64,000 bases of DNA from Stegostoma tigrinum (Eukaryota), in assembly GCF_030684315.1 (NCBI RefSeq), contig NC_081387.1, positions 10,622,822 to 10,686,821 on the forward strand, in the 5' to 3' direction. Positions 14,260-64,000 of this stretch are shown here, in pieces. The first letter of the stretch is position 1. The number at the start of each line of letters is the position of its first letter. The notes under the pieces are model-generated. The model worked only from the letters and a program-made list of their open reading frames with translations. It was not told where the DNA came from and ran no database searches. The position numbers and the translations under genes are program-made.

Positions 14260-14540
14260 AATTGTGCAGCACTCCCACACTATACCTTTTATTGCGCAGC
14301 ATTCCACACTTACCCTCCTCTGAAGGTATAGCACTCAAAACCACACTCCTCAAGATGTGGCTGTCCATTAGCACTACACCTCCAACAGTGCTGAATTCCT
14401 TCAGCATTGCCTTGAAAGAAGTGTCACACTCCGTCAGAATTGACCCTCTGACAGTGTGGCACTCCCTCAACATTGACCGTCTGACAGTGTGACACTCCCT
14501 CAGTACTGAATCTCTGACACTGGCAGCACTTCCTGAGCAT
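14260..14540 (+). repeat. Degenerate copies of the 33-bp SINE-derived repeat
   Basis: ctccctcagtactgaatctctgacactggcagca and variants, homologous to the 25596-26170 array. Confidence 0.7.
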
Positions 14541-15199
14541 GAAATACGTTTATTAACATGCATCATCTACAGTTCTGGATATAATGAAGTTGCAAAACCT
14601 CTCCAGAATGTGACATGTATTCCTTAAACTTTTGAAAATTTCAGTCATGAATGTTAATCCTATTTTCAAATATTGTCTCATTCACTGATTTGTAATATTG
14701 CTGAAAATAGAATTGTAATGCAGTGTTTGTGACCCTTGGTAACCCTTTGAGCGGAGGCAAAGCTCTAAGATTGTCACACTATGTCTGCTTTTGCCACATG
14801 TCCTGTTTTCAATCATTACTTATTCCAAATTTGATCTCCACAATAGCCATAACAATCTGATTGAAAACAGATGTGTCTTTGAGGAACTCATCCCTTACTC
14901 CATACATTGTACTTTCCACTTCAAACCGTGGTTCCTGACATTCCTGACAAATCCAAATTCCAAGCTTAATTAGATTCCATCATCCAAAGCCCCACAGCTT
15001 CATTTGTCACTTCCAAAGCTAAGGGTGAAATCGTGGAGGTGCCAGATTCTATTAAACACTCCCAAGCTAATCCATTCCCATTTCTAATAGATTTCACCAC
15101 CCATCAAATTTCCAAAGGGCTTCTTTCAACTCACTCTCACTCCTGGTGGAGCAGTAATAGAGAGGAATGTAGTTTATTGCAACAGGAATGGAACATAAC

Positions 15200-25360: not shown

Positions 25361-25595
25361 TCTCATTCCTGCAAAATATTTAGGATACTTCAGAATTCCT
25401 AAATGTTTTACTGCCAATGAATTACTCTGACTTCAATCACTGTTATAATTTAGGAAACAAGATCCCCAATTTGCACTCAGACAATGTATTGGGAGTAAAT
25501 AACTAATGAACCGGTTTAATGATTTTGATTCATGGAAACATATCGGAACTAGGATGCTTAATGTTTTCCTCTTCAACTGAGTGACATGGCCCCTC

Positions 25596-26170
25596 CTACA
25601 TTCCAGCACTGCCTCAGTACTGACCCTCTGACAATGCAGCACTCCCTCAGTACTGACCCTCTGACAGTGCGGCCCTCCCTCAGTACTGACCCTCTGACAG
25701 TGCAACACTCCCTCAGTACTGACCCTCTGACAGTGCGGCCCTCCCTCAGTACTGACCCTCTGACAGTGCAGCACACCCTCAGGACTGGCCCTCTGACAGT
25801 GCGGCACTCCCTCAGTACTGACCCTCTGGCAGCGCGGTCCACCTTCAGTACTGACCCTCTGACAGTGCAGCAGTCCCTCTATACTGACCCTCTGACAGTG
25901 CAGCACTCCCTCAGTATTGACCCTCCGACAGTGTGGCACTCCCTCAGTACTGACCCTCTGACAGTGCAGCACTCCCTCAGTACTGACCCTCTGACAGTGT
26001 GGCACTCCCTCAGTACTGACCGTCTGACAGTGCCAAACTCCCTCAGTACTGACCCTCTGATAGTGCGGCACTCCCTCAGTAGTGACCCTCTGACAGTGCG
26101 GCACTCCCTTAGTACTGACCCCCTGATAGTGCGGCACTCCCTCAGTACTGACCCTCTGACAATACAGTAC
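25596..26170 (+). repeat. 33-bp minisatellite (~17 copies) inside a DeuSINE-like element
   Basis: Unit ctccctcagtactgaccctctgacagtgcagca; gives 11-aa periodic ORFs in several frames; flanked by SINE body (25370-25600, 26170-26270). Confidence 0.95.
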
Positions 26171-26399
26171 TCTATTCGTGCCAACCATGTGACAGAATGA
26201 GACTGAAATCTTTGAAGTGGGTCTTGACCTTTGAACCAGGGATGAAAGTGAGAGCAACTGAGCTTTAGCTATCGCAGATAGGTGATGGTTAAGGCTCCCG
26301 CAGGCTGAGGGATAAGATAATAGGTGATTTGTTTGATTTGGCTGGTTGGCAGGGCACCATGTAAGTGGAAAAGGATGTCAGTTTTAAAAAGACGGGACA

Positions 26400-28595: not shown

Positions 28596-31066
28596 TGATA
28601 ACAAAGTGTGAAGCTGGATGAACACAGAAGGCCAAGCAGCATCTCAGGAGCACAAAAGCTGACGTTTTGGGCCCAGACCCTTCATCAGAAAAGGGGGATG
28701 GGGAGAGGGTTCTGGAATAAATAGGGAGAGAGGGGGAGGTGGACCGAAGACGGATAGAGGAGAAGGTAGGTGGAAAGGAGAGAATAGGTGGGGAGGTGGG
28801 GAGGGGATAGGTCAGTCCAGGGAGGATGGACAGGTCAAGGAGGCGGGATGAAGCCAGTAGGTGGGAAATGGAGCAGCAGCTTGAGGTGGGAGGAGGGCAT
28901 GTGTGAGAGGAAGAACAGGTTAGGGAGGCGGGGACAGGCTGGGCTTGTTTTGGGATGCAGTGGGGAGAGGGGACGAGTTGGGCTAGTTTTGGGATGCTGT
29001 GGGGGAAGGGGAGATTTTGAAGCTTGTGAAGTCCACATTGATACCATTGGGCTGCAGGGATCCCAGGCGGAATATGAGTTGCTGTTCCTGCAACCTTCGG
29101 GTGGCACTATTGTGGCACTGCAGGAGGCCCATGAATGACATGTCATCTAAGGAATGGGATGGGGCGTTAAAATGGTGTGCCACTGGGAGGTACAGTTGTT
29201 TATTGTGAACCGAGCAAAAGTGTTCTGCAAAGAGGTCCCTAAACCTCCGCTTGGTTTCCCCAAAGTAGAGGAAGCCACACCGGGTACAGTGGATACAGTA
29301 TAACACATTGGCAGATGTGCAGGTGAACATCTGCTTAATGTGGAAAGTCAGCTTGGGGCCTGGGATGGGGGTGAGGGAGGAAGTGTGGGGGCAAGTGTAG
29401 CACTTCCTGTGGTTGCAGGGGAAGGCGCCGGGTGTGATGGCGTTGGAGGGGAGTGTGGAGCGGATCAGGGAGTCACGGAGATAGTGGTCTCTCCGGAACG
29501 CAGACAAGAGTGGGGATGGAAAATGTCTTGGGCGGTGGTGTTGGATTGTAGATGGCTGAAGTGTCAGAGGATGATGTGTTGTATCCGGAGGGTGGTGGGT
29601 GGTATGTGAGGATGAGGGGGATTCTCTTAGGGTGGTTATTGCGGGGGCGGAGTGTGAAGGATGTGTTGCGGGAAATGCGGGAGACACGATCGAGAGGGGA
29701 AGTTGCGGTCCTTGAAGAACTTGGACATCTGGGATGTGCGGGAGTGGAATGCCTCATCCTGGGAGCAGATGTGATGGAGGCGAAAGAATTGGCAATAGGG
29801 GAGGGAATTTTTGCAGATGGGTGGGTGGGAGGTGCTGTGTTCTAGGTAGATGTGGGAGTCGATGGGCTTGAAATGGACATCAGTTTCTAGCTGGTTGCCT
29901 AAGATGGAGACAGAGAGGCCCAGGACAGTGAGGGATGTGTTGGAGATGGCCCAGGTGAACTTGAGGTTAGGGTGGAAAGTGTTGATAAAATGGATGAACT
30001 GTTCGAGCTGCTCTTGGGAGCAAGAGGTGGCACTCATCCTCACATACCGCCCCACCAACCTCCGGATACAAAGCATCATCCTCCGACACGTCCGCCATCT
30101 ACAATCTGACCCCACCACCAAAGACATTTTTCCATCCCCACCCTTGTCTGCCTTTCGGAGAGACCACTCTCTCCGTGAGTCCCTTGTCCACTCCACACTG
30201 CCCTCCAACCCCACCACACCCGGCACCTTCCCCTGCAACCGCAGGAAGTGCTACACTTGCCCCCACACCTCCTCCCTCACCCCAATCCCAGGCCCCAAGG
30301 TGACTTTCCATATTAAGCAGATGTTCATCTGCACATCTGCTAATGTGGTATACTGTATTCACTGTACCCGGTGTGGCTTCCTCTACATTGGGGAAACCAA
30401 GCAGAGACTTGGGGACCGCTTTGCAGAACACCTCCGTTCAGTTCACAATAACCAACTGCACCTCCCAGTTGCAAACCATTTTAACCTCCCCTCCCATTCT
30501 TTAGATGACATGTCCATCATGGGACCCCTGCAGTGCCACAATGATGCCACCCGAAGGTTACAGGAACAACAACTCATATTCCGCTTGGGAACCCTGCAGC
30601 CATATGGTATCAATGTGGACTTCACCAGCTTCAAAATCTCCCCTTCCCCACTGCTTCTCAAAACCAGCCCAGTTCTTCCCCTACCCCTGCTGCATCACTG
30701 AACCAGCCCAGCTTGTCCCCTCCCCCACTGCATCCCAAAACCAGCCCAACCTGTCTCTGCTTCCATAACCTGTTCTTCCTCCCACCTCAAGCCGCACCTC
30801 CATTTCCTACCTACCACCTCATCCCGCCTCCTTGACCTGTCCGTCTTCCCTGGACTGACCTATCCCCTCCCTACCTCCCCAGCTATACTCTCCTCTCCAC
30901 CTATCTTCTTCTCTATCCATCTTCGGTCCGCCTCCCCCTCGCTCCCTATTTATTCCAGTTCCCTCTCCCCATCCCCCTCTCTAATGAAAGGTCTAGGCCC
31001 GAAACGTCAGCTTTTGTGCTCCTGAGATGCTGCTTGGCCAGCTGTGTTCATCCAGCCTCACATTTT
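28596..31066. mobile_element. Neptune-type Penelope-like element, fold-back arrangement (minus copy 28596-30033, plus copy 30034-31066)
   Basis: ORFs with Cys linker FPCNRRKCYTC and GIY-YIG VVYCIHCTRCGFLYIGETK on both strands; RT thumb region on the minus strand (FIHFINTFHPNLKFTW); pLTR with hammerhead-like core at each outer end. Confidence 0.9.
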
Positions 31067-31159
31067 ACAACCAGAATGATGTCTTCCCCGGGCAATTGCA
31101 ATGCTTTCCATCACTGACCCTCCTCCACTCTGCACCCTTGCCTGTTTCTGAAACCATCG

Positions 31160-32136
31160 CTAACCCAACTCCCCTCCCTCGGTATCTTCTCCAGCCCTGT
31201 ACACTTCCTGGGCTTTGGATTGCGCCCATTCACTTTGCTTCCTCCTCAACTGAATAATTGACTTAATTGGGCGTTTCATTGCAATCAGCAACTGCTCTCT
31301 GAACTTGGATTGAGTCACCCCATAAATAAATGCATTTGTGCAACAATTTAAACTCAATACCATACCAGCAACTTCTGCAAATACATATAAAAAATCGTTG
31401 TAATATGTGGGTTTAATTCCTGTAATGGTGTAATATAAAAAGTCAATGACATATAGAAGCCAAAGCAATATGAAACTGCCGGATATGGTGAAGAGGAAAA
31501 TCACAGACTTTCTTCTGCGCTCCATCTCTGGGTCACTGTGATTCTCTCCTTTGCCCTGACCTCTGAGTCCTTTGCGAACTTGGCTGGTCACCAAAATGTG
31601 TCTGACTGTCAGAGCATTCAGTAACAGAATTAAAGCATACGGGAGCAATGGGGTCAGAATTTTGTCAAACCAGTCAAATCCCAACCACGCAGGGTCAGTA
31701 TGATAGCTTGTCTTCACAACACAGTAGAAGGGAATATTGTCAATTATCTGTCCAGGTTCATAGGTAAAATAGAATGGAATGTCTTTTAAACAAAGCGTAA
31801 TGCAGGTTGTTGCTAGAATCATACTTGCAAGTCTCTTGGTACAATATTTTCTTTTCAGATTCTGGCAACAGATGGCCACGAAGCGATCAAAGGAGAAAGT
31901 GACAGTGAACCAGACAGAACATTCTGTTGCTGCATAAAACAGGACAATGATAACACTGCAGATAGGAGTGATGTTCAAGAAAGATTCTGGAAAATAGTAA
32001 GAATTAATCTGCCACAGTACAACTCCAGTAATAATGACCATTAGATCTGCCATTACCATGGCCACAAGGTAGAGGGTGGTACAGGTGGAGGGACCATTCT
32101 TTCCCTGACACAGGATCACGATAGCCACCAAGTTAA
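31160..32136 (-). CDS. Orphan class A GPCR, GPR139/GPR142-like, exon 2 (TM1 end to C-terminus)
   Basis: Intact ORF with hydrophobic helices: N in TM1, LVAMVMADL (TM2), FDRFVAIC (DRY variant), ECL2 Cys, LLW in TM6, NCCTNAFIY (NPxxY variant). Acceptor tctcttttcactgccag|TT at 32137/32136. The ORF-track start at 32215 is intronic. Confidence 0.9.
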
Positions 32137-33069
32137 CTGGCAGTGAAAAGAGATTGCAAATTAGTAATGAGTTTTTTTTACCATATCCAAATATTTCTGA
32201 CCCTCCTTGACTCAAAAGTTAAAGCTTTTCAAAACAGAATGCATCACTGAAGTGACTCTAACTTAAATATGCTCATTTTCATACTTAATGGACATTCCCT
32301 GCAATGGGCAACCAGTCTGCTTAAAAGTTTCATGAGGTTGTGAATCTCTGATTTCACTTGTTCTAAGCTTGAATTGAATTGGCTTTGGACTTTTGCTAGG
32401 AAGAGAGATGTCACCAGAAATATGTGGACATCAAGAATACAATACTCAGCTCAGAAGAAAGAAAGGCGTGCATTTTGCAGAGCAGCATGTGCAACACAAA
32501 ACAGTTTATAAAGATACAGTTTCAAAATGTGAGAAAATGCAGCAGAGGAATGAAAGATCCATGAGGGACAGAACTAAACATTTGGCTAAAAATTGATCTT
32601 CTGAAATCTCATGTAGAAAGAGACAGAGAATTGGAAAAGTACTCAAAGGGTGCAGGGTGCAGATATACACATCATTGAAATTCACAGAGCAAGTTCGCCC
32701 AGTCAAAATAAAGCAAATGGAAAAACTCCCATCTAAATGGGAAGAAAATTCAGAAATCTTAGGTGCAAAGAGGCTTGTGTGTTCCAGTCCAGGATTCTCT
32801 CAAGGTTTCTGATGAAATAAAATTGAAAAAAGTCAGAGCTATTGTATTAAAACTGTAAAAAAAAATTGAAGTGCAACATATGGCTTTGTTCTTATTTTGC
32901 AGAAAGAACTTAAGAACAAAAGATATTACAAAATGTTGTGCAATGGTATTATCAAAACCTTGACATTTGAACTATCTGGAAAGAAGGATGAGGTTGGAAC
33001 TCTTTTGAAAATAGATGGCTGAGGAGAGACCTAAAGGAAACTGAACCCTTATGAATGGGTTTGAGAGAG

Positions 33070-48700: not shown

Positions 48701-49739
48701 ATCCGTTCTTGGGAAGTATGCAACTCTGGCAGGGCTAGCTTTTCTTTCCCATCCCGAATTCCTTTTTGGCTTTCCAGGTCTTTTCAGAGGGAAGCTAAGT
48801 AGTATAGAATCCCTACAGTGTGGAAGCAGGTGATTTGGCCCATCTTGTACACAATAATCCTCTGAAATGCATCCCACCCAGACCCACTCTCCTCCCCTGT
48901 AACCCTGCGTTTCCTATGGCTAACCCACCTAGCCTTCACATTCCCTGCACACAATGGACAATTTAGCATGGCCAATTCACCTAACCTGCCACACAATGCT
49001 GAGGAACTGGAGTCACGTGCAGGCTTGACCTGTCAACTTTCCTTCCCTCAGGGACAGGTGTATGAATGAGTGTGATGTTACTCTGAAGAACAACCCACCC
49101 TATCCCAGAGGCCTACATTCACCATGGCTGACACATATGCTGCACATCCCTCGCTAACTACTGGGCAATTTAGCTGCTGAATTACTTTTTTTAAAGAACT
49201 TCTTGTAATATCTTTGCTAAGAAAAATGTGGAGTCACGGGGCTAGGATGGGAGGAGTGGGGTGCTCTTCAGACGGTTGGTGCAGACTTAGTCGGCCGAAT
49301 GGCCTCTGCCTGCACTGTAGGGATTCTACGGTTCACTTTTTGAGATCTGTGTGCACCATATGTTGTCTATGAGCCTGTTGCCTCAATCAAAACTCAATAT
49401 GCTTTGTTAAAATTTTGTTTTTTTTTTGAAATGGCAAGGCAATCTCTGCATGTTTTCCTCTGTTATCACACAGTTACAACAACAACAGCCTTTGTTTATA
49501 TGCCACATCTAAAGTCTTACAATTTTCCACAGATTGGTGACACAATTTTCAAGGAGAGATTCAGTTGTAGGGGCACAGTGAGACACTGAAACCTTGATCA
49601 TGGCCACTCAGTGAGGGATCTGGGAGATAGGGGATAAGACTCAGGAGGACCACAGCAAGCAGGGGTCAGTTGTAGGTCTCGTTTTCTGTTGTATTTCAAC
49701 GTGGAGGACATGACCCTCTTGCTCCTTTTTTTGTTTCAG

Positions 49740-50000
49740 AGTTTCACTCTCTTCAATACTTGGCCACTGCTCAGACTGCGACCCAACACCTCCCAGGCTT
49801 TGTGATCGTCGGTTATGTGGACGGTGCCCAGTTTTTTAATTATGACAGTGATCAGAAGAAATTGATTGCCCAGGGGCAGTGGATGGTAGAAAATAAGAGG
49901 CCCCCATTCTGGGAGCGAAGTGCTGTGCTGGCACAGCAGAAGGAGAAACATTTCAAAACCTACATCGAAGAGATAGCAGCACGGACCAACCAGTCGGGCG
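49740..50000 (+). CDS. MHC class I heavy chain, alpha-1 domain exon
   Basis: Acceptor tttcag|A, donor GGCG|GTGAGC, 261 bp, phase 1-1. Translation EFHSLQYLATAQTATQHLPGFVIVGYVDGAQFFNYDSDQKKLIAQGQWMVENKRPPFWERSAVLAQQKEKHFKTYIEEIAARTNQSG has HSL-Y7, GYVD, YDS, W, FWE, R84 and the NQS glycan site. Confidence 0.95.
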
Positions 50001-50742
50001 GTGAGCACTTACATTTTTGCCATTCACCATCTTTTTGACAGAAGCTGGGAGTGGAATGATGCCTGGATAGGGTCTTGGAAAGGAAGTGGCTCCATCTCCA
50101 TAGGACAAGGGATGGAGCAGAAGGTGTACATTAGACTTCAAAATGATATACTTATATATTTTTTAAAGAAAGCTGTACCCACCTGGCTGATGTTCCAAAG
50201 CTTAGGGAAACATAGATTTCAGAAAACATGGCAAGAATACGGGAAGCAAGAGACGATAATAAAGAGGAATACCAAGATATTCTAAGAGTGCTTGCAGAGA
50301 TGGATAACACTAGAATGGAGGATAAAAAAGTCAAGAAGTGAATTTGGAGTAAGGGAGAAAGTACTGAAATGTAAATCAAGGATACTGACTGTGTGAAGTA
50401 TAGTAAATTAGACTTTCGAGTTACAGACTCAGATTGTCTCGTGAAAATATGTTGTAATAGTAGCAGAGATCTGGCTCAAGGACTGTATAGTAAATGTCTC
50501 TGGATATAAGTTATATGGTAAAGATAGGAAAGGAAGAAATGGAAGAGGGGTGGCATTATTGGTCATGGAGAGGATTGCAGTGCTAGAGAAAGTGTACATC
50601 CCAGATGGTTCGAGGACAGAATCAATCTGACTTGAGCACAGAACAAAACTAGTACAATTATATTGCTAGTCGATAGCTCACCAACAAGTGGAGAGTGACA
50701 ATTATGCCAACATTATAAAATAGTTTTAAATGGGTTGGTAGT

Positions 50743-53201
50743 TCTGGATGTGAGTTTGCTCGCTGAGCTGGAAGGTTAGTTTTTAGACGTTTCATCACCA
50801 TTCTAAGTAACATCATTGAGCCTCCAACGAAGCACTGATGTTATGTCCCGCTTTCTATTTATCTGGTTAGGTTTCCTTGGGTTGGTGTTGTCATTTCCTG
50901 CATTGGTGATGTCATTTCCTGTTCTTGTTCTCAGGGGATGGTAGATTGGCTCCAAATCAATGTGTTTGTTGATGGAGTTCAGGTTGGAATGCCATGCTTC
51001 TAGGAATTCTCGTGCATGTCTCTGTTTGGCTTGTCCTAGGATGGATGTGTTGTCCCAATCAAAGTGGTGTCCTTCCTCATCTGTACGTAAGGATACTAGT
51101 GACAGTGGGTCATGTTGTTTTGTGGCTAGTTGATGTTCATGTATTCTGGTGGCAAGCTTTCTGCCTGTTTGTCCAATGTAGTGTTTGTCACAGTTCTTGC
51201 AAGGTATTTTGTAGATGACGTTAGAAGCAACACTGAAAGACAACAAACTCACAGAAGAAACCCAGCAAACCATCAGACAGACAGTCACACCAACACTAAG
51301 CAGGAAAAAGGAAGAAAACACGCTCAATACACAAGAAAGAAAAGCCCTAAAATGACTCATTTAAGATAAAAACATCGTTATCCTACCTGCAGACAAAGGA
51401 CGCTTGACAGTCATCTTAAACCGAACAGACTACATTGAGAAAGCGAATGCACTGCTTGCAGATACCGACACTTACGAACAGGTGGCGATAGACCTGACCC
51501 CACAACTAGAGAACCGAATCACAGCCTGACTCAAAAAACTTCAAAAATCTGGAGAATTAAACAAGAGAGACTTCTAAAAAATGAAACCAGATGGATCCCA
51601 CACACCACGCTTCTACGGACTACCAAAAATTCACAAACCAGGAGCCCCCCTCAGACCCATAGTGTCGCTACCTGGAACACCAACCTACAGATTAGCCAAG
51701 GAACTACACCCCAAAGACTAAAACACCTAGTAGAAGACTCCCATCACTCCACCCAAGAATTCCTGAACACCAAAGACACCAAGATAGAAGAGGATGAAAT
51801 AATGGTTTCTTTTGACGTAACAGCCCTGTTCACATCCATCAACATCAACCTGGCCAAAGAAACACTGACTACACTATTAGACGAACCAAAGACACATACA
51901 CCAGACACCACCAACCTCATCAGCAAGGACAACATCATCAAGTTAGTGGACCTATGCCTCACCACCCACTTCACTTTCAATAACAAAACCTACAGACAAA
52001 CCAACGGTACACCCATGGGATCTCCGATATCAGGGTTCTTAGCAGAGGCAGTAATGCAGAGACTCGAACAAACAGCTCTACCAATCATCCAACCCAAACT
52101 TTGGGTCCGCTACGTGAATGACACCTTTGTCATCACTAAACAAAACAAATTAGAGGAAACCTTCAAGACCATCAATAATACCCTTACTGGCATAACATTC
52201 ACAAAAGAGGAGGAAAACAACAGCAAACTGCCATTCCTAGATGTCACAGTAGAGCGAACAGTCAATGGGGAACTTCAAACCAGCATCTACAGGAAAACAA
52301 CACATACGGACCAAATACTGAACTACAGGAGCAACCATCCCAACACCCACAAACGAAGCTGCATTAGAACATTATTCCAACGAGCCACCACACACTACAG
52401 CACAGAGGAACTACGCAGAGCAGAGGAAAATCACCTATACAGCGTATTCACAAAGAATGGGTACCCTATGAACACAGTCCGCCGATTCCTCAGCAATAAA
52501 CCCAAACAAACAGACAAAAAGGGCCCAGAAACCATAACCACTCTCCCCTACATCAAAGACATTTCCGAAATGACTGCCAGACTACTCGGATCCCTTGGCA
52601 TCAGGGTAGACCACAAACCCACCAACACACTAAAACAGCAGCTAATGTACTTAAAAGACCCTATACAGACAACAAACAAAACAAATGTCATCTACAAAAT
52701 ACCTTGCAAGAACTGTGACAAACACTACATTGGACAAACTGGCAGAAAGCTAGCCACCAGAATACATGAACATCAACTAGCCACAAAACGACATGACCCA
52801 CTGTCACTAGTATCCTTACGTACAGATGAGGAAGGACACCACTTTGATTGGGACAACACATCCATCCTAGAACAAGCCAAACAGAGACACGCACGAGAAT
52901 TCCTAGAAGCATGGCATTCCAACTGGAACTCCATCAACAAACACATTGGCTCCAAATCAATCTACCATCCCCTAATCAATCTACCATCCCCTGAGAAAAA
53001 GAACAGGAAATGACATCACCAACCCAAGGCAACCTAACCAGATAAATAGAAAGCGGGACATAACACCAGCGCTTCATCGGAGGCTCACTGATGATGTTAC
53101 CTAGAATGGTGATGAAACGTCTAAAAACTAACCTTCCAGCTCAGCGAGCAAACTCACATCCAGAACCTCAACCTGAGCTACAAATCTTCTCAAAACTCGC
53201 T
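50743..53201 (+). mobile_element. Poseidon-type Penelope-like retroelement (5'-truncated plus copy 51222-53201 with inverted 3' copy 50743-51221), inserted in an old CR1
   Basis: RT motifs SFDVTALFT, GTPMGSPISG and WVRYVND (catalytic D to N); GIY-YIG VIYKIPC...YIGQT; upstream stops and frameshifts. TSD atg(g/c)gttggtagt at 50730-50742 and 53202-53214. Confidence 0.95.
53088..53121 (+). ncRNA. Minimal hammerhead ribozyme core in Penelope pLTR
   Basis: CTGATGA-t-gttacc tagaat ggtgat-GAAA-CGTC: conserved core, stem II, and palindromic ACGT at stem III. Confidence 0.7.
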
Positions 53202-53875: not shown

Positions 53876-54624
53876 TGTAGTGGAGAAACTACCAGGAGAC
53901 GCGGAGAATTCTTCAGAAAGTTTAAACTTTTATTTGCAAACAAAAGCTGTGACCATCAGAAAATGGTTTCCCAATTGCCCCCCGATCCTCGGGCCTCGTT
54001 ATTTTTTAATACTTTTTAGTTATCACACTTTCTTCAAATTATCAGCATGCCCAATGGTATTAATTAGTAAACAACTTATGTCACTATGCTTAGATCATTT
54101 CTATCTCATGACAGAGAGCCATTGCACCTGCACTTGAAGGTCAGTTAGAGTGGTTAGTACCCCTCTATCTTATCAGGTTACTGCTGTATTCTGAAAGGCG
54201 CATTGTTTACGATCTTTCTTTGCAGCGGCCTGAGGGTTAGTGATTTACGTAGCTCGAGCAGAATTAATAAAGTTCGCAGCCGAGAAGCCATTTTGTTGCT
54301 AATTTGCATCGAGAAGCCATCTTGTGCCTGTATCCAAGTTTCTTATTTATTACTACATCTGCCTGAATGGCCGTTGACCCCATTACGGCATGCTAGTCCT
54401 TAGTTCTATGTTACATACTTTAATTAACCTAATTAAGCTGCCGTTAATAGCTAACCTGGGTGTCCTACCTTTGTTTTACACTCCCTTGACCTATGCTCAA
54501 GCACTTCATTCTGTTAACGTACAGCATTCTATTGATTATTGTAATACTCCATAAATCAGTACATCATCCTGCTGATCACTAAGATTTAACCCTTTGTCTG
54601 CCCCTATAATTTTAATTTCCATCA
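53876..54624 (-). repeat. ERV 3' LTR (~750 bp)
   Basis: TG...CA ends; minus-strand AATAAA near 53930; PPT AAAGGGGGGAA at 54625-54635; first ~127 bp repeated at 63874-64000. Confidence 0.9.
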
Positions 54625-55156
54625 TTCCCCCCTTTGAGACCTTCTGGTCTCAATCAAAGGAAGAAACCAATAAGTGCAGACCTCCTGTGTGCCAATGAAA
54701 ACCTTACAGAACCCAACACAGGCCAAGTGAATTTTGAGGTCCGATGCTTAAAGGGTTCTTCCCCTGATCCTGGAGTCCCCTGGGCCAAAAGCCTGTTCCC
54801 CAAAAGCTAGAACAGGGAAAAGACCCACAGACCCTCACAATCTAAGGCCCGCGCATCCCGCAGAAGCGACTTTGTCTTCTTTCAAGCATGCCTCCTGCAC
54901 TCTATCAGATGCCGGATCGGAGCAGTAGAGTCAAAGGAGGGGGCGCATCCGGGGGGTTGGAGGAAGAACCAAGAGTTGCTGTGTGGTAATGTGCACTAGA
55001 AGAGACTAAAGAAAAGGTAAGGCATGACAAAAAAACAAAAGCGACGATGAGTAGTACAATACCTACAATAATTCCAACCTTGGCAACCCAAGCCCCCCCA
55101 TCCCCCTAATACGCAATCCAGCCAATCAAAAACCTGATGGCCAAAACCTGCGTTGT

Positions 55157-56792
55157 TGCCCTATCCCTCACCTTCCTGGACCTCTCAGTCTCCATCTCAG
55201 GCAACCAGCTTGTAACTGATGTCCATTTCAAGCCCACCGACTCCCACAGGTACCTAGAATACACCTCCTCCCACCCACCGTCCTGCAAAAATTCCATCCC
55301 CTATTCCCAATTCCTCCGCCTCCGCCGCATCTGCTCCCACGACAAGACATTCCACTCCCGCACATCCCAGATGTCCAAATTCTTCAAGGACCGCAACTTC
55401 CCCCCCCACAGTGATCGAGAACGCCCTCGACCGCGTCTCCCGTATTTCCCGCAACACGTCTCTCACACCCCGCCCCCGCCACAACCGCCCAAAGAGGATC
55501 CCCCTCGTTCTCACACACCACCCCACCAACCTCCGGATACAACGCATCATCCTCCGACACTTCTGCCATTTACAATCCGACCCCACCACCCAAGACATTT
55601 TTCCATCCCCACCCCTGTCTGCTTTCCGGAGAGACCACTCTCTCCGTGACTCCCTTGTTAGCTCCACACTGCCCTCCAAACCCACCACACTCGGCACCTT
55701 CCCCTGCAACCGCAGGAAATGCTACACTTGCCCCCACACCTCCTCCCTCACCCCTATCCCAGGCCCCAAGATGACATTCCACATTAAGCAGAGGTTCACC
55801 TGCACATCTGCCAATGTGGTATACTGCATCCACTGTACCCGGTGTGGCTTCCTCTACATTGGGGAAACCAAGCGGAGGCTTGGAGACCGCTTTGCAGAAC
55901 ACCTCCGCTCAGTTTGCAACAAACTACTGCACCTCCCAGTCGCAAACCATTTCCACTCCCCCTCCCATTCTTTAGATGACATGTCCATCATGGGCCTCCT
56001 GCAGTGCCACAATGATGCCACCCGAAGGTTGCAGGAACAGCAACTCATATTCCGCCTGGGAACCCTGCAGCCTAATGGTATCAATGTGGACTTCACCAGT
56101 TTCAAAATCTCCCCTTCCCCAACTGCATCCCTAAACCAGCCCAGTTCGTCCCCTCCCCCCACTGCACCACACAACCAGCCCAGCTCCTCCACTCCACCCA
56201 CTGCATCCCAAAACCAGTCCAACCTGTCTCCGCCTCCCTAACCTGTTCTTCCTCTCACCCATCCCTTCCTCCCACCCCAAGCCGCACCCCCAGCTACCTA
56301 CTAACCTCATCCCACCTCCTTGACCTGTCCGTCTTCCCTGGACTGACCTATCCCCTCCCTACCTCCCCACCTACACCCTCTCCACCTATCTTCTTTACTC
56401 TCCATCTTCGGTCCGCCTCCCCCTCTCTCCCTATTTATTCCAGTTCCCTCCCCCCATCCCCCTCTCTGATGAAGGGTCTAGGCCCGAAACGTCAGCTTTT
56501 GTGCTCCTGAGATGCTGCTTGGCCTGCTGTGTTCATCCAGCCTCACATTTTATTATCTTGGAATCTCCAGCATCTGCAGTTCCCATTATCTCTGATACTA
56601 TTTTAACCCCCCTACCTATACTCTCTCCACTTATCTTCTTTTCTCTCCATCTTCGGTCCGCCTCCCCCTCCCTATTTATTCCAGAACCCTCACCCCATCC
56701 CCCTCTCTGATGAAGGGCCTGGGCCCGAAACATCAGCTTTTGTGCTCCTGAGATGCTGCTTGGCCTGCTGTGTTCATCCAGCCTCACATTTT
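55157..56792 (+). mobile_element. Neptune-type Penelope-like element, 5'-truncated, tandem pLTRs, 5 bp TSD
   Basis: LTFLDL RT thumb, CNRRKCYTC linker and GIY-YIG. GTTGT duplicated at 55152-55156 and 56793-56797. pLTR hammerhead cores at 56466 and 56707. Confidence 0.95.
56466..56493 (+). ncRNA. Minimal hammerhead ribozyme core (family A pLTR)
   Basis: CTGATGA-a-gggtc tag gccc-GAAA-CGTC; second copy at 56707-56734 with an ATC site. Confidence 0.75.
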
Positions 56793-57035
56793 GTTGTCCT
56801 TAAGCTCCTGCCTTAACCTCTTCAGCTTCTCTATCGCCTTAGTAAAAGACCCCTCTGGAGTGATATTGTTAGGTATAAAGGTGCAACAGTGCTCCCCAAG
56901 CATTACACATACTCCTCCTTTCTCAGCTAACATCGAACGCAGAACCTGTCTATTTTGCCATGACATTTTGGTAGTTAATAAATCTTTGTTGGTTGTAATA
57001 GATGTGATTAATCCACTCAGTATTTTTGCTGACTC

Positions 57036-57270
57036 CTATCCAAACCTCTGTTTGATCCTTAAAGCTTGCAGATCCAACTTAACTACTTTTTGTGCAAAGG
57101 CGGACCCATTGTCTGAACTGATTTCAGACGGTATGCCAAACCTTGGGATAATTTCATTTGTCAGAAATTTTACCACTGCTCCTGCTCCCAAATCTTTGGA
57201 TGGAGTTCCTTCCACCCATCTGCTGAACCTGTCAATTACCACTAACATGTACTTTTTCCCTCTCACCTTC
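57036..57270 (-). pseudogene. pol: ERV integrase core remnant
   Basis: GKKYMLVVIDRFSRWVEG...IIPRFGIPSEISSDNGSAF. Confidence 0.9.
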
Positions 57271-57299
57271 TTTATTTCTACCTTCTTTGGGTTCCCTAC

Positions 57300-57760
57300 C
57301 ATATCAATGTGCACTATAATTTTAACATAACCATCATCCCCAGATTTCCTCACCCCTGTTGCTATTATTCGTCAATCCCTAACTGTTCCTGCATGTTTGG
57401 TCATGCCCGAGGTCTTTAGGTTGTACCCCTAATTTATGAGTAGCATCACATGGGGTGCGGCACCTGGCATATTGTACCATTTTTCCAAAAATTTGTTCTT
57501 CTTAACTTGTAGCACTGCTCCCTGTTTTCCTATCCTTGTAGCTTCACCCAATAAATGCTGCGGAGTGTTAACCCTACACTGCCACCATTTAGCCAACACC
57601 TCATCCTGAGTCCCATCAAATATTACTGAGCAGTGTAACTCAGACTTAGGAGGTTTTGCCCTTGGTAACATTGCTAATACTTCTGTCTCCCATTGTTTCC
57701 AAACACTGAATGTAACTGGCTATATCACCTATCCAATACGCATTGAAATCTCTAGCTTTC
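57300..57760 (-). pseudogene. 2H-phosphoesterase-like domain in ERV pol, downstream of protease
   Basis: Two HxS/T-type motifs 61 aa apart: LHCSV (57635) and PHVML (57452; Met codon ATG is one transition from ACG Thr). Confidence 0.7.
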
Positions 57761-57829
57761 TGCATTACGAACTGTGTGTTTGCTTTTTCTACACTGAAGC
57801 CTTGCTGTGTGCATTCTCATCTCAATTCT

Positions 57830-58165
57830 AATTTCAGTAAAGCATGCTCACCTAACAAATTACTAGTGTCCGAAGGGACACCGATTTATCGGCAAGATTA
57901 TCTCTTTGCCTTCCATTTCTAAATTTACTAGAGCAGTGAATCAAGTTAGCTGTGCTTTCCCCGAGAACCCAACAGCTTTAACAAATTTGCTTGACGTGGG
58001 AAGGTGGGAGGCATACTGCGGCTGCACACACGTATACGTGGCTCCAGTATCCATCATCACTGGCATCAGCCGTCCCTCTATACTAACGCGTACAATTGGA
58101 TCTTGATCAGCCTCCCATGTAATTGCAGGATACAATCCCTTCCCATCCAGGTTCTCAGGGCACCC
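57830..58165 (-). pseudogene. pro: ERV aspartic protease
   Basis: DPIVRVSIEGRLMPVMMDTGATYTCV...VGFSG; in frame after an amber codon TAG-GGG at 58168-58163 (readthrough-type gag-pol junction). Confidence 0.9.
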
Positions 58166-60076
58166 CTAGCACAAGCCATAAGGATTTACGGGTCCCGTTG
58201 AGCTTTAAGGCATCTGGGGTGGGGCTGTCAGGTATTCCTGATTCCTAGGTCTGTTATGTGTCGGGGCAGCCCAATTCCAATAGGTGCAATTCCTTCTGAA
58301 GTGACCTGGTTGGTAGCACTCCCAGCACAGTAATTCTGCCCCTCTTGCATTTGGTCTCTTGCTATGTTTTTCAATCTCCCACCCCTGTGCCCCTGTCCTC
58401 AGGGATGCCAGTTCTGCCTGGGTTGCTGTTTAATTTTTACCTACCTTGGGTACTGTGTCTGTGGGGAAACTTCCCTAGAGACTTCTATTGTTGGCATGGG
58501 ATTTTCCAGTCCTTGCCTGGCAATGTGAGGGGGGCCCCCTTGTGCTGGCATTCGGCTCATGTTTGCATCGACCATTGAGTCGGTTCTCACAGGCAGTACC
58601 TTTTGCTCTTTTCTTTTTCAACTCTGAGCTGCATTTGTGCCAGTTTTCTCTGCACCTCTTCCTGCTGCTCAGACAGTTTCTCTTTGTCTTTTCGGTACTT
58701 TTCAACTATATGGGCTAGGTGGTCTCTGAACTCTTGGTGGCCCATTGTTGTCAGTCCCACCACTTCCTCCAATTTAGACCTGACTTGAGAGGGCATTGCA
58801 TTAACAACAGCGTTTCGAAATATTGCAGTCAGCAACATATCACTCTCTACGTCTTGTTCCGTTTCCCGCCTCCACTTTCTCAGCTGTTTCTCTAAATAGT
58901 CTGCCGGGTTTTCACTGTCTCCCATTTTGTTCCCCTTTAGCACTCAAGGGTCTGATTTAGGTGGATAACAGTCTCTGAGGGCCTGCCATACCCTCTGTCT
59001 CACTTGATCAAACCCGACACTGTCCACCGTCGGGTTGTCCACCACATTTTTCTAACCGGCTGGGTCCATTATTTCTTTTAACTTCAGGAGCCCCACTAGC
59101 CTTGCCAGCAATGCCTTTAAATCTCCCATAGCCAACAATCATCCTGTGGTCTCATCTTCAAAAGCTCTGATCCACTTCCCTGCTCCCTCATGTAAACTGG
59201 GGAGCACATTCCTCAACCTTTCCAGATCCTGGGCTCCCCAAGGAACATATTGTGGCAGTTTCTTCCCCTTAATAAGTAATGGCAGCATCTTTCCTTATGG
59301 GGGCTTCTTCACTTTACTATAACTGCCATATTGTGTTTCCTCATCAGATGCAGATTCCAACCCTGCCTCTATCTCCAATTCCTCCCATCCTTTACTCACT
59401 TTTCCTACTCCGGTCCCTCCTTTCACCTGTTTCTCATCTTCCTCTTTTACTTTATATCACTTCCACTCCCTCCCTGCTGTGCCCTCCTCTTACTTTCCAG
59501 AAACTCCTCATAGTCTTTTTGTTCCCTTCATCTTTGCAATGTAATAATTTCTTGTCTTAATTCCTGCTGTATAGCTTCGACTTCTTCCTGCCTCATCTTT
59601 CCTTCTGCCTCACTTTTTCCTTTAAGATATTCTTCTCTTTTTCACCCCTGTCCCATTCTAGTTCTCCCTCTATCTCCACCATTCCCCTTAGTACAGGGCG
59701 TTGCCTCGCATTTTCACTGTCTGCATAGGGAGGGGGTCTATCCATCCCCTCCAAGCTTGGGTATAGGGAGGATTTCTTTTCTGGTTCTTCTACTTCTGTA
59801 GTCAGCTTAACCTGTTCTTTAGCACCCTTCCTGGTCACACCTGGTGCCTGGTCTGCTTTTCTCAACTCGTCCCCTTCTTTGCTATATAGTTTTAATATTT
59901 CCATCTCTGTTCTCTTTTTTTAAAAACTTCTTTTTCCCAATTTATCTGTTGATCTGTAGTTCTTAATTAACCCTTCCATGTCCTCACAAAAGCTATTATC
60001 AAAGGTACCCTCCTTTGGCCATTTAGTCAATAACTTCTCAGTTCTTTTTGCCCATTTCTCAGAAATTTTTACAATG
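58166..60076 (-). pseudogene. gag: ERV gag (frameshifted)
   Basis: MA motif WPKEGTFD (near 60020), late domains LYPSL and PPPY, CA-like helices, and NC knuckle CWECYQPGHFRRNC (58327-58286). Confidence 0.9.
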
Positions 60077-62108
60077 TCACTTTTTAAAAAAAATTATCAC
60101 TGTCAAAGCTTTGTTATTAGTGGCTAGAAAAGCCTCAATCCTTCTACTAAATACATCAACAATAACAAGACAATACCTATAGCAATGTACATGCGGCAAT
60201 TCAATAAAATCAAGCTGAATGCACTCAAATAGACCACCAGGCAAGAATGTTTTCCTGTTACGCACTGCACTCCTTGACCAGTCAATAAGCATTGATAACA
60301 AAGCATCAGGTATACACACTTGGCCAAGTGGGAGTGACCCAGAGGCCTTGTGACGCAGAGCACGAACACTGATACATCTTCCACAATAGTTTTTTGGAGC
60401 TAGGGGCGTCCCCCTTGTAAACGCTGAACAGTGACAATATCTGGCATGCCCGTCGTATTTGAGGAAGGCAAGCAATTTATTACCTGCTTGCTCATAGAAG
60501 GCACAATAAAAGTTTGATCTGCAGCAGCCTGATCAACCCGAGCATTACCCTAAGTAGCTATAGAATCTTCGGAGACATGGGCAGTGCATTTGATAATAGC
60601 AAATTGTTTAGGGAGGAGGATTATCTGGAGAAGGTTTTTAAACATACTGTGAATTCTGGATAGGTGTACCTGAGCATGGTTTTGTTTTCCGGGCCTCCCC
60701 TGTGAGTTTTAAAATAACCTGCCCTCCTTCCTTTTGTCAATGCTCTCATGATCTTGGTTAACAGTAGAATTTTTTGGAGGGCATCTGCATGTTCTACTGT
60801 TTCACATAATCTGCATCGCATGTCACATTTTATTTCAAGTTGCCTACTTCCTTCTCCAATCCTCCTCGTCTTACTCATTTATATCATTACTTTGGAACAA
60901 CATCGGCAAGCCAGATATGTCAGGAGGCACCTCCTTTTTATTTCCGTACGGTAATTCTGCCTGGCATTTCACTCCTAATTCTTATGCTGCATTTCCTTTC
61001 TCAATCTTTCCTGTTCTGCTTTACTCCCCACACTGCTGCTTTGATACCTCCTGTGATTTAAAGTTTCCCTCATAATCACGTACTCTAATCCCTCTTCGAG
61101 GTGCATTATTATCCCAACTCGCCAGTTTAGATTTGTTCATTATTTCCTCAGTGGTTTTTCTCCACGTGGATATTAAAGTTTTTCATTTTGTCCCTGAATT
61201 GCATTTTCAAATTGCTTCGTTCACTTTTATGCATTTATCTGCATCCCAAGTCCCCCACCTGTCCAAATTTCATTCCCTAATTTATTATTAAGGTATGCTG
61301 ACAGATGCCTGAATTGCTCCTAATCCTCAGAATTATCTCTGCACGTTCGATGTAGAGGAGCTCCAGTGCTGGATTTAACCAAGGTTTAACTCATTTTTAG
61401 CGCGTTTACATTGTTGCTTATTTCTATCTACTACAAAAGTGTCCTTGGTCCAAACACCCAATTCAGGATCCTGACCTTTGCGTGGGGGATTTCCCCTCTT
61501 AACAACTGGTCTAAGGCAGGGTGTTTGAGACAGGCAGACACTATACTTATCGCCGAATACTTATTCTACTTTATTCCTGCTTAGGGGTGCGAGGCGCAGA
61601 TAGGAACACCAATCATCCAAATCCGAATTTTCGTTGTCTCCCGCACCCAAACCAAAGCCAACCATTGAATTACGCAACTCTTTTTGTTTGTCAGTCACCG
61701 GCGACTTTTCTTTTTGTTTCTGTTGACATTTGACTCCAGTACATTTGTTTTTGAGGACCTCAATTAATTTTATGGCACCATTATCAGTCAGTTCAATTCC
61801 CAATTTGGTGGCAGACTCCTGCCATGAATTTAATACCAATTGTTTTGTGGCTTTCATCACAAAATTGTCGCCACAGTCCAATCAATTCTTCCATTTTTTG
61901 AGCCCATGTTTCATCGCCAAATCAACTACTGGGCTGATTTAACAAATTGATTATTTCCAGGGCCACTTAGTAGCCACTGTTCATCACCTAATTTCTTATT
62001 TAAGGCATCAGAAAGTTTATGCAGAGCTTCAGATTTATCCGGATACTTTGCTCACGGTTTCATCGTGAGGAAGTTAGATCTTCCATCTTATCTACCGTTA
62101 TTACCCAT
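60077..62108 (-). pseudogene. Second, divergent retroviral block: gag-like (62108 to about 60700), RNase H C-terminal half (about 60670-60520) and integrase N-terminal/core (60475-60077)
   Basis: MGNNG start with a QWLLSG MA-like motif; SGTPIQN...LLPKQFAIIKCTAH...GNARVDQAA; IQLDFIELP...YCLVIVDVFSRRIEAF. Confidence 0.65.
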
Positions 62109-63254: not shown

Positions 63255-63852
63255 ACTGTTCCCTGCTGTTTTGTTTCAGCCAATTACTAATGATCTATCC
63301 CCCTTTAATTTAAACCAGATTCAATAATACTTGCAATACAGCATTCTCTGCTTCACTTGTTCTGCCCGTACAGACCCCTGTTTTTTCAGAGCGGTATCCA
63401 CAGGATTCTCTGTCCTGCCCATTCAGCCCCTTGCTACCTGCAAGGCGGTATCCACAGAACTCTCTGCCCTGCCGTCCAGCCCCTCACTCCCTACGAGGCG
63501 GTATCCACAGGGACTTACTTACACCACGTGGAATTTTATTTCACCCGATCTTTTTCACTTATTTGTCCCTTATCCCACTGCGCAGTTTACTTGAACAGTC
63601 CTCCACGCCTCCTTCAACTTTAAATTACTCCCTGCTGTCTGGATCTTTGGGTCGGAGAGACCATTCGGCAGCTTCCCCACACTTCCGAGTCCCCGAGGAC
63701 CTCCCAAGCGAACAGAATATAGTCCGAATCAGAAGCAGAAATGCTTTTCTTTTGCTTTGGGTGCACCCTTATTCTGTCAGTTTCAGGAGTGTCCCCACCA
63801 GACCGGGAAGCGCCCTGTTACTGTCGCCCCTCTTCAGGTAGCTCTCTGCACG

Positions 63853-63870
63853 ACCCTGCTCATTGCGCAA
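63853..63870 (-). promoter_or_regulatory. Primer-binding site, tRNA-Ser(UGA)-like
   Basis: Plus-strand ACCCTGCTCATTGCGCAA matches the recalled vertebrate tRNA-Ser(TGA) 3' end ACCCTGCTCGCTGCGCCA at 15/18 positions; it lies 3 bp from the LTR. Confidence 0.7.
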
Positions 63871-63873
63871 ATT

Positions 63874-64000
63874 TGTAGTGGAGAAACTACCAGGAGACGC
63901 GGAGAATTCTTCGGCAAGTTAAACTTTTATTTGCAAACAAAAGCTGTGACAATCAGAAAATGGTTTCCCGATTGCCCCCGAACCTCGGGCCTCGTTATTT
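63874..64000 (-). repeat. ERV 5' LTR (U5 end, truncated by the window)
   Basis: Direct repeat of 53876-54004 with about 5 substitutions and 2 single-base indels. Confidence 0.9.

Follow-up and report, generated by a model that had tools for sequence, protein, structure and literature searches.

The window analyzed here, 64,000 nucleotides of Stegostoma tigrinum contig NC_081387.1 (positions 10,622,822 to 10,686,821), contains a decayed provirus in which two histidine motifs follow the protease and no reverse transcriptase (RT) is found. We asked whether these motifs mark a 2H phosphoesterase domain, what such a domain would do in a fish retrovirus, and why it is present in an element from which RT has been deleted.

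Location and decay of the domain

A single open reading frame of 96 amino acids (57432-57719, minus strand) holds both peptides on which an earlier, sequence-only reading of this locus had based its 2H call. As that reading had stated, the motif histidines, whose codons begin at 57635 and 57452, lie 61 residues apart, and the second motif carries methionine at its third place (Table 1). A tblastn search of the window with protein P0001 of the stingray Hypanus sabinus (146 residues aligned at 52% identity, together with an N-terminal segment read in a different frame) extends the homology past the end of this ORF, in frame across both stop codons, down to 57273, and places the first strand of the domain in the other frame, beyond the frameshift near 57710. 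A motif pair of this kind is not beyond chance by itself: among the 119 stop-to-stop ORFs of at least 90 amino acids in the window, 10 contain a loose H-x-S/T ... H-x-S/T/M pair at similar spacing, and a stricter pattern that recovers only 1 of the 119 was fitted to this very ORF and is not independent. The 2H call therefore rests on homologues and fold. No Pfam family matched the 96-residue ORF or the 149-residue read, and the window protein did not match the Pfam CNPase family, PF05881.

The window copy does not have paired H-x-T/S motifs and reads as a decayed member of the 2H superfamily. Because the second hydroxyl residue has been lost and two stops and a frameshift have been gained, this copy of the domain is almost certainly inactive. 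For CNPase, loss of the second-motif threonine is described as nearly abolishing activity (PMC4643303). CpG decay is a plausible origin of the degenerate residue; the observed/expected ratio of CpG is 0.28 in the domain and 0.29 in the window.

Table 1. Features of the provirus and of the retroelement that interrupts it, in order along the minus strand
Feature	Position	Strand	Evidence or state
5' LTR, inner end	63874..64000	-	runs off window
Probable primer-binding site	63851-63873	-	inferred from position beside 5' LTR
RNase H C-terminus and integrase N-half, other retroviral lineage	60113..60633	-	tblastn P0032/P0034; PF00665 E 6e-5; upstream of gag
gag (capsid and zinc knuckle)	58169..60084	-	tblastn P0064, 220 residues aligned at 51% across 3 stops; stops and frameshifts interrupt the frame
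Retroviral aspartic protease	57800..58165	-	PF00077 E 5e-5; tblastn P0001, P0033; stops and one frameshift
CNPase-like 2H phosphoesterase domain	57273..57750	-	spans the whole domain; interrupted by a frameshift near 57710 and by stops at 57431-57429 and 57374-57372; motif 2 degenerate
First catalytic motif, H-C-S	57627..57635	-	read in ORF frame
Second catalytic motif, H-V-M	57444..57452	-	third position without hydroxyl group in window copy
Integrase core, middle fragment (79 codons)	57036..57272	-	PF00665 E 1e-11; aligns with tilapia pol P0032 residues 1113-1187
env transmembrane-subunit fragment	56784..57035	-	PF00429 E 2e-5; joined to integrase fragment
Penelope-like retroelement insertion	55163..56800	+	weak GIY-YIG (PF01541 E 0.004, below cut-off); high-copy repeat by contig depth; splits env TM
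Probable env membrane anchor and tail	54905..55105	-	hydrophobic stretch in translation; no Pfam match
3' LTR	53876..54624	-	123/130 nt match the portion of the 5' LTR inside the window

Relatives and conservation of the motifs

A phmmer search against 1.84 billion representative sequences returned 23 matches at E <=0.001, with the motifs common to 22; a bacterial repeat protein among the 23 (P0004) was spurious and was dropped ahead of all counts. Profile searches added 5 long proteins (from 4,439 candidates) and 21 shorter ones (from 3,467 candidates). A single-sequence word search for longer proteins found none among 120 candidates, which is weak evidence, since the profile search did find them. 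Soldierfish, tilapia, fugu, sea bream, and grouper are the sources of the long relatives; in four of these five the domain stands ahead of RT, and in three it stands after the protease (PR). In the pol of tilapia, sea bream, and fugu it has PR on one side and RT on the other, and the paired histidine motifs are present, so that intact relatives bear out the assignment of the domain to pol. Intact natural homologues include tilapia CAI5657156.1 (domain at about residues 135-305), sea bream A0A671WVG1, and stingray XP_059830613.1, the last with a non-canonical first motif. The nearest named relative is stingray P0001 (59% identity, E 3e-25), which supports the extension of the domain to cartilaginous fish; all other named relatives are teleost. 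Scans of viral contigs and of metagenome contigs found no relative.

Conservation was counted over the 43 search matches, a larger census (47 of 55 canonical) being set aside because many of its entries are near-identical cluster members. Among relatives covering the position in question, motif 1 has histidine in 35 of 35 and threonine in 34 of 35, while motif 2 has histidine in 40 of 40, threonine or serine in 37 of 40, and methionine in none of 40; the canonical second motif anticipated for other copies is thus what natural relatives carry. Both H-x-T/S motifs are canonical in 29 of the 32 relatives that cover both, and the two histidines never vary, which puts them among the best-conserved columns of the alignment (median column, 45%). 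Their spacing is 61 to 65 residues in this family versus 79 in CNPase. In the cluster of P0037 (23 members), the six members covering both motifs have alanine at the third place of motif 2, and P0001 has alanine in motif 1; these sequences may possibly represent pseudo-enzyme lineages.

Fold and kinship with CNPase

The window domain was modelled with X at its two stops from a 23-sequence alignment (pLDDT 85.7). Compared with 48,161 representative chains, this model was closest to mouse CNPase (Z 12.9, rmsd 2.8, 146 residues aligned), and the next row reached 6.7; Z was 5.7 for rotavirus VP3, 5.7 for Acb1, 5.6 for MHV ns2, 5.1 for AKAP18, and 4.9 for the penguinpox cGAMP phosphodiesterase (PDE). 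In a Foldseek search of the PDB with the same model, all 42 matches listed were CNPase or goldfish RICH. A model of the intact relative P0005 (pLDDT 87.9) gave the same ranking at higher scores, with CNPase at Z 15.6-16.4, RICH at 13.4, 6u05 at 12.9 (rmsd 7.2, 161 aligned), and all other rows at 9.7 or less, among them ns2 (8.4), VP3 (7.8), Acb1 (7.8), AKAP18 (7.3), and the penguinpox enzyme (6.7). In each of the two wide structure searches, the best 21 rows consist of 2H proteins or of entries annotated so by fold, and ESM features of the bare 96-residue ORF point to 2H families at 0.91-0.95. Models and ESM features together thus argue for the 2H fold that had been proposed from the motifs.

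The P0005 model aligns near-full-length with CNPase residues 160-378, and a helix lies 11-21 residues past the second histidine (residues 126-136 in the P0005 model, with His 115, and 106-110 in the window model, with His 90). From its position and the near-full-length alignment, we judge this helix of the predicted models to be equivalent to helix alpha7 of CNPase, which other 2H enzymes are said to lack and which is tied to stereospecificity (PMC4643303). Single residues were placed against mouse CNPase by numbering, as given in PDB entry titles and in PMC4643303, and not by residue-level superposition. In this register, the position five residues after the first histidine (His1+5), where Phe235 of CNPase is described as stacking on the base (PMC4643303), is aromatic (Tyr or Phe) in 40 of 40 relatives and Phe in the window copy. 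Proline occupies His1-5 in 25 of 35, and glycine occupies His2+15 in 36 of 36. The base pocket appears to differ from that of CNPase, because Arg307 has no counterpart (Arg at His2-2 in 0 of 41, by register) and the position of Val321 (His2+12, by register) holds mostly Lys, His, or Arg, with Val in 0 of 36. The first strand bears a conserved Tyr/Phe-Trp pair, whose register to CNPase Tyr168, the residue under the ribose, is ambiguous.

Sequence comparison placed the domain further from CNPase. Pfam PF05881 matched 1 of 39 members, at a best E of 0.084 that does not reach the curated cut-off, and profile searches of PDB sequences with the domain found no 2H protein. A further PDB sequence search likewise gave none, and its nodavirus capsid and protoglobin rows were rejected as chance (E >=0.5). 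Identity between the domain and CNPase is 11-16%. We conclude that the domain is CNPase-like in its predicted fold, yet outside the CNPase family by sequence.

The provirus around the domain

Read along the minus strand, the element runs from the 5' LTR through a leader, gag, an amber codon, protease, the 2H domain, a piece of integrase, and env TM to a polypurine tract (near 54625-54635) and the 3' LTR. The amber codon is in frame at the gag/pro border, just before the protease. The order LTR-gag-pro-pol-env-LTR, a gag and pro that share a frame with amber between them, and relatives of murine leukemia virus (MLV) type make the element epsilon-like; the long relatives carry MLVIN_C, and the start of their RT is most like MLV RT among PDB sequences. 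The zf-CCHC match in gag (E 0.003) is under the curated Pfam cut-off.

The placement of the domain after the protease in an element with RT deleted, as the sequence-only reading had described it, is confirmed: PF00077 lies upstream, the PF00665 fragment directly downstream, and neither RT nor RNase H lies between the two. Measured against tilapia pol P0032, the window retains residues 4-83, 158-264, and then 1113-1187, so that some 800 residues, covering RT, RNase H, and the N-terminus of integrase, are missing at a junction near 57272, where the integrase fragment carries on the reading frame of the 2H domain directly from its end. The integrase C-terminus and env SU are deleted at the join between integrase and env TM. 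Both junctions keep one reading frame (56784-57371, minus strand) with a stop at the second, an outcome with a chance of about 1 in 9.

The provirus also reads as a mosaic, with RNase H and integrase of a different lineage upstream of gag; its two integrase pieces share 32% identity across 40 residues. This foreign piece and one ORF without assignment lie in the leader of about 3 kb between the 5' LTR and gag. The leader ORF (61561-61881, minus strand, 106 codons) has no Pfam match and an ESM recognition of 1931, below the useful level; its look-alikes by ESM are weak, one cluster being from chordates, and it is perhaps the start of a second gag. Stops or frameshifts occur in gag, protease, and the 2H domain alike. 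Taken together, the features point to an epsilon-like provirus of a cartilaginous fish, a mosaic that has undergone internal deletion and is dead.

Several other features lie in the window. An MHC class I alpha-1 exon (49679-50035, plus strand; PF00129 E 1e-17) is found about 4 kb from the 3' LTR, and its best PDB match among 481 sequences is 6lup, which we take to be a shark MHC molecule. This match and the stingray origin of the nearest named relative of the domain point to a probable cartilaginous-fish host. An open frame of 352 codons (31160-32218, minus strand) encodes a rhodopsin-family seven-transmembrane receptor (PF00001 E 4e-25). Penelope-like retroelements with RT and weak GIY-YIG matches lie at 51439-53013 and 55163-56800 (both plus strand) and at 28600-31070, and a Penelope-like tail repeat occurs in many copies, some of them as inverted pairs. 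Arrays of a 33-bp tandem repeat are found at 25492-26283 and 14354-14558, the longer falling within a 314-codon open frame that has no Pfam match.

Copying of the deleted form

The sequence-only reading held that the domain was kept while RT was deleted. This stands as anatomy; as a statement about selection it does not, the domain having decayed no less than gag and protease and a piece of integrase without its N-terminal part having been retained as well. The breakpoint lies 59 residues past the second histidine, at the very end of the domain, and RT begins 85-90 residues past that histidine in 6 of the 7 relatives examined. Two contigs cross the junction in one piece, each about 9% diverged from the window: record 10 of X2 (57074-57375, 28 other letters) and record 18 of X4 (57103-57375, 25 other letters). 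Since these diverged contigs share the junction at 57272, the deleted form exists at another locus and has been copied at least once after the deletion, through either retrotransposition in trans or duplication. The four sequencing runs that hold related contigs all belong to one study, and no RNA run is among the listed runs holding the sequence. Parts of the leader and the 3' end have a summed contig depth several times that of gag-pro-2H; this depth, which is not a copy number, suggests several related copies.

One explanation for such copying is that the RT-less element was maintained for a useful Gag-PR-2H fusion, the 2H domain being retained by selection, whether viral or host. A breakpoint at the very end of the domain, an in-frame junction with integrase, and diverged contigs that span the same junction would all fit this explanation, to which we nonetheless give little credence. 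The deletion is a single event, non-autonomous endogenous retroviruses (ERVs) spread by cis signals alone, and segmental duplication could also account for the second copy of the junction. Moreover, gag, PR, and 2H are all broken in the window copy, and the integrase fragment retained beside them cannot work. We conclude that survival of the domain in this element reflects the position of the breakpoint and not shown selection.

Proposed function in intact viruses

The domain belongs to the regular makeup of Pol across many fish retroviruses. Its position suggests that, in intact viruses, it would be made with Gag-Pro-Pol and packaged in amounts like those of RT; the ratio of Pol to Gag is low in gamma- and epsilonretroviruses. 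Fold and residue register point to the chemistry of CNPase, in which a 2',3'-cyclic phosphate would be opened to a 2'-phosphate and a free 3'-OH, and the substrates may be RNA ends (of a genome or tRNA primer nicked by host RNases) or free 2',3'-cNMPs. We lean, with somewhat better than even confidence, toward a virion-packaged CNPase-type enzyme opening 2',3'-cyclic phosphates on RNA ends or cNMPs. Action on 2',3'-cyclic phosphates had been raised at first sight as a minor option, and the CNPase-type fold of the models backs it. Gammaretroviruses such as MLV replicate without a domain of this kind, and the healing of ends would therefore not be a core retroviral need.

The principal alternative is an anti-immune phosphodiesterase that would destroy 2'3'-cGAMP or a related cyclic dinucleotide, carried in by the infecting core at the stage when the host senses reverse-transcribed DNA. 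Viral 2H enzymes are reported to change substrates readily, with a range that varies across viral 2H groups (10.1101/2025.08.21.671373), and those of avian poxvirus and phage T4 are reported to cleave cGAMP (PMC11410667). Acb1 clusters are present among the ESM and BFVD matches, and delivery in the virion would fit the timing. We nevertheless consider this alternative unlikely, given that the penguinpox PDE (Z 4.9 with the window model and 6.7 with P0005) and Acb1 (5.7 and 7.8) lie far below CNPase (12.9 and 15.6), and that an enzyme made at the level of Pol is made in small amounts. Furthermore, a helix like alpha7 has been proposed to limit substrate size in CNPase (PMC4643303).

It is also conceivable, if improbable, that the domain is a captured host CNP acting mainly as a non-catalytic decoy or scaffold, host CNP being a protein that binds the Gag matrix and blocks retroviral assembly. 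Such binding to HIV-1 MA, with inhibition of particle formation, has been reported (PMC7471995); the third motif residue is non-canonical in 3 of 32 relatives, including stingray P0001 and the representative of the 23-member cluster; and a match inside a membrane-bound Env loop (described below) would face the matrix layer. However, both histidines are invariant and stand among the most conserved columns, as expected for a working active site. Least probable of all is degradation of 2-5A to block OAS/RNase L in the manner of coronavirus ns2 and rotavirus VP3. These enzymes and AKAP18 do share the superfamily (at the Z scores given above), and a listed elephant shark OAS (PMC6307210) suggests that cartilaginous fish may have the pathway. 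CNPase is nevertheless by far the nearer fold, and the named relatives, all teleost but the stingray, keep the motifs in hosts for which loss of OAS1 is reported (10.1101/326454; for "some teleost fishes" in PMC2852836). The analogy with ns2 and VP3 that the sequence-only reading had drawn for 2-5A and cGAMP thus finds little support beside a CNPase score about twice that of those enzymes.

A CNPase-like match in walleye virus Env

Among the BFVD models, a CNPase-like fold matched the Env polyproteins of walleye dermal sarcoma virus (WDSV) and walleye epidermal hyperplasia virus 1 (A4GTG3 and Q9WHI8). The top three BFVD matches of both the window and P0005 models had E values of 3e-14 to 9e-6 and TM-scores of 0.67-0.78 over 138-187 columns. 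Membrane helices are predicted in WDSV Env at 850-874 and 1045-1069, with a cytoplasmic loop between them (PMC3185748). This loop, at 170 residues, is the right size for the domain, and the match probably lies there, in the TM subunit of Env; its range and histidines are placed by inference. The walleye viruses would thus carry in Env a fold that the window provirus and its fish relatives carry in Pol. We regard as new, on the strength of predicted models, this CNPase-like fold matching Env of two walleye retroviruses. Mazumder et al. are said to have described 2H modules in retroviral polyproteins in 2002, and the Env match may already stand there.

We suggest tentatively, at a confidence somewhat short of even, that a CNPase-type enzyme is a general module of fish retroviruses and can change its place within them. 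It would occur in viruses of sharks, rays, and teleosts alike, in most lineages in Pol between PR and RT and, in the walleye viruses, in the Env loop. If so, two routes into the virion would imply that these viruses need to hydrolyze 2',3'-cyclic phosphates inside the particle or on entering the cell, where the enzyme might heal RNase-cut RNA or tRNA ends or clear cNMP signals, a retroviral activity and a host pressure not yet described.

Comparison with known systems

Some epsilon-like ERVs of ray-finned fish are reported to encode CNPase (Naville and Volff 2016, citing Basta et al. 2009; PMC4977317). A CNPase-like domain is therefore already known in teleost ERVs, and the window locus is one more decayed copy. 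It shares with them a CNPase-like domain in an epsilon-like fish retrovirus and differs in its cartilaginous-fish host, its broken state, and its lack of RT, RNase H, and env SU. Our literature search found no shark case, Env location, or enzyme assay of a fish-retroviral CNPase-like domain. Three surveys of viral 2H enzymes (10.1101/2025.08.21.671373, PMC10835031, and PMC11410667) do not use the terms "retro"/"retrovir" or "CNPase" in their main text, and the first part of a study of elephant shark ERVs (Han 2015; PMC4422223) does not mention the domain.

CNPase and fish RICH (2xmi, 1woj, and 2i3e; PF05881) are the best structural matches (Z 12.9-16.4) and have the paired motifs, the base-stacking aromatic, and the helix in common with the retroviral domain. 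In contrast to them, the retroviral domain has about 165 residues versus about 215, lacks the N-terminal kinase-like domain, and sits inside a viral polyprotein. The physiological substrate of CNPase itself is still described as a question (PMC4643303). The next closest fold is that of the cyclic phosphodiesterase of fungal tRNA ligase (PF08302; 6u05), to which 2 of 39 members have weak Pfam matches (best E 5e-4). Entry 6u05 is titled a fungal RNA kinase, and we take its C-terminal part to be this phosphodiesterase, which heals 2',3'-cyclic RNA ends; the retroviral domain differs in belonging to a retroviral polyprotein without a kinase or ligase partner. MHV ns2, rotavirus VP3, Acb1, and the avian poxvirus cGAMP PDE share the superfamily and the paired-histidine site with the retroviral domain, but their Z scores are about half those of CNPase, and helix alpha7 is described as absent from them (PMC4643303).

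The window locus adds little by itself; what makes it useful is that it leads to intact homologues and to the walleye Env version. Extra enzymes inside retroviral Pol are, to our knowledge, rare, the textbook example being dUTPase, and the invariant histidines of the CNPase-like domain across sharks, rays, and teleosts point to an unstudied step in retroviral replication or defence.
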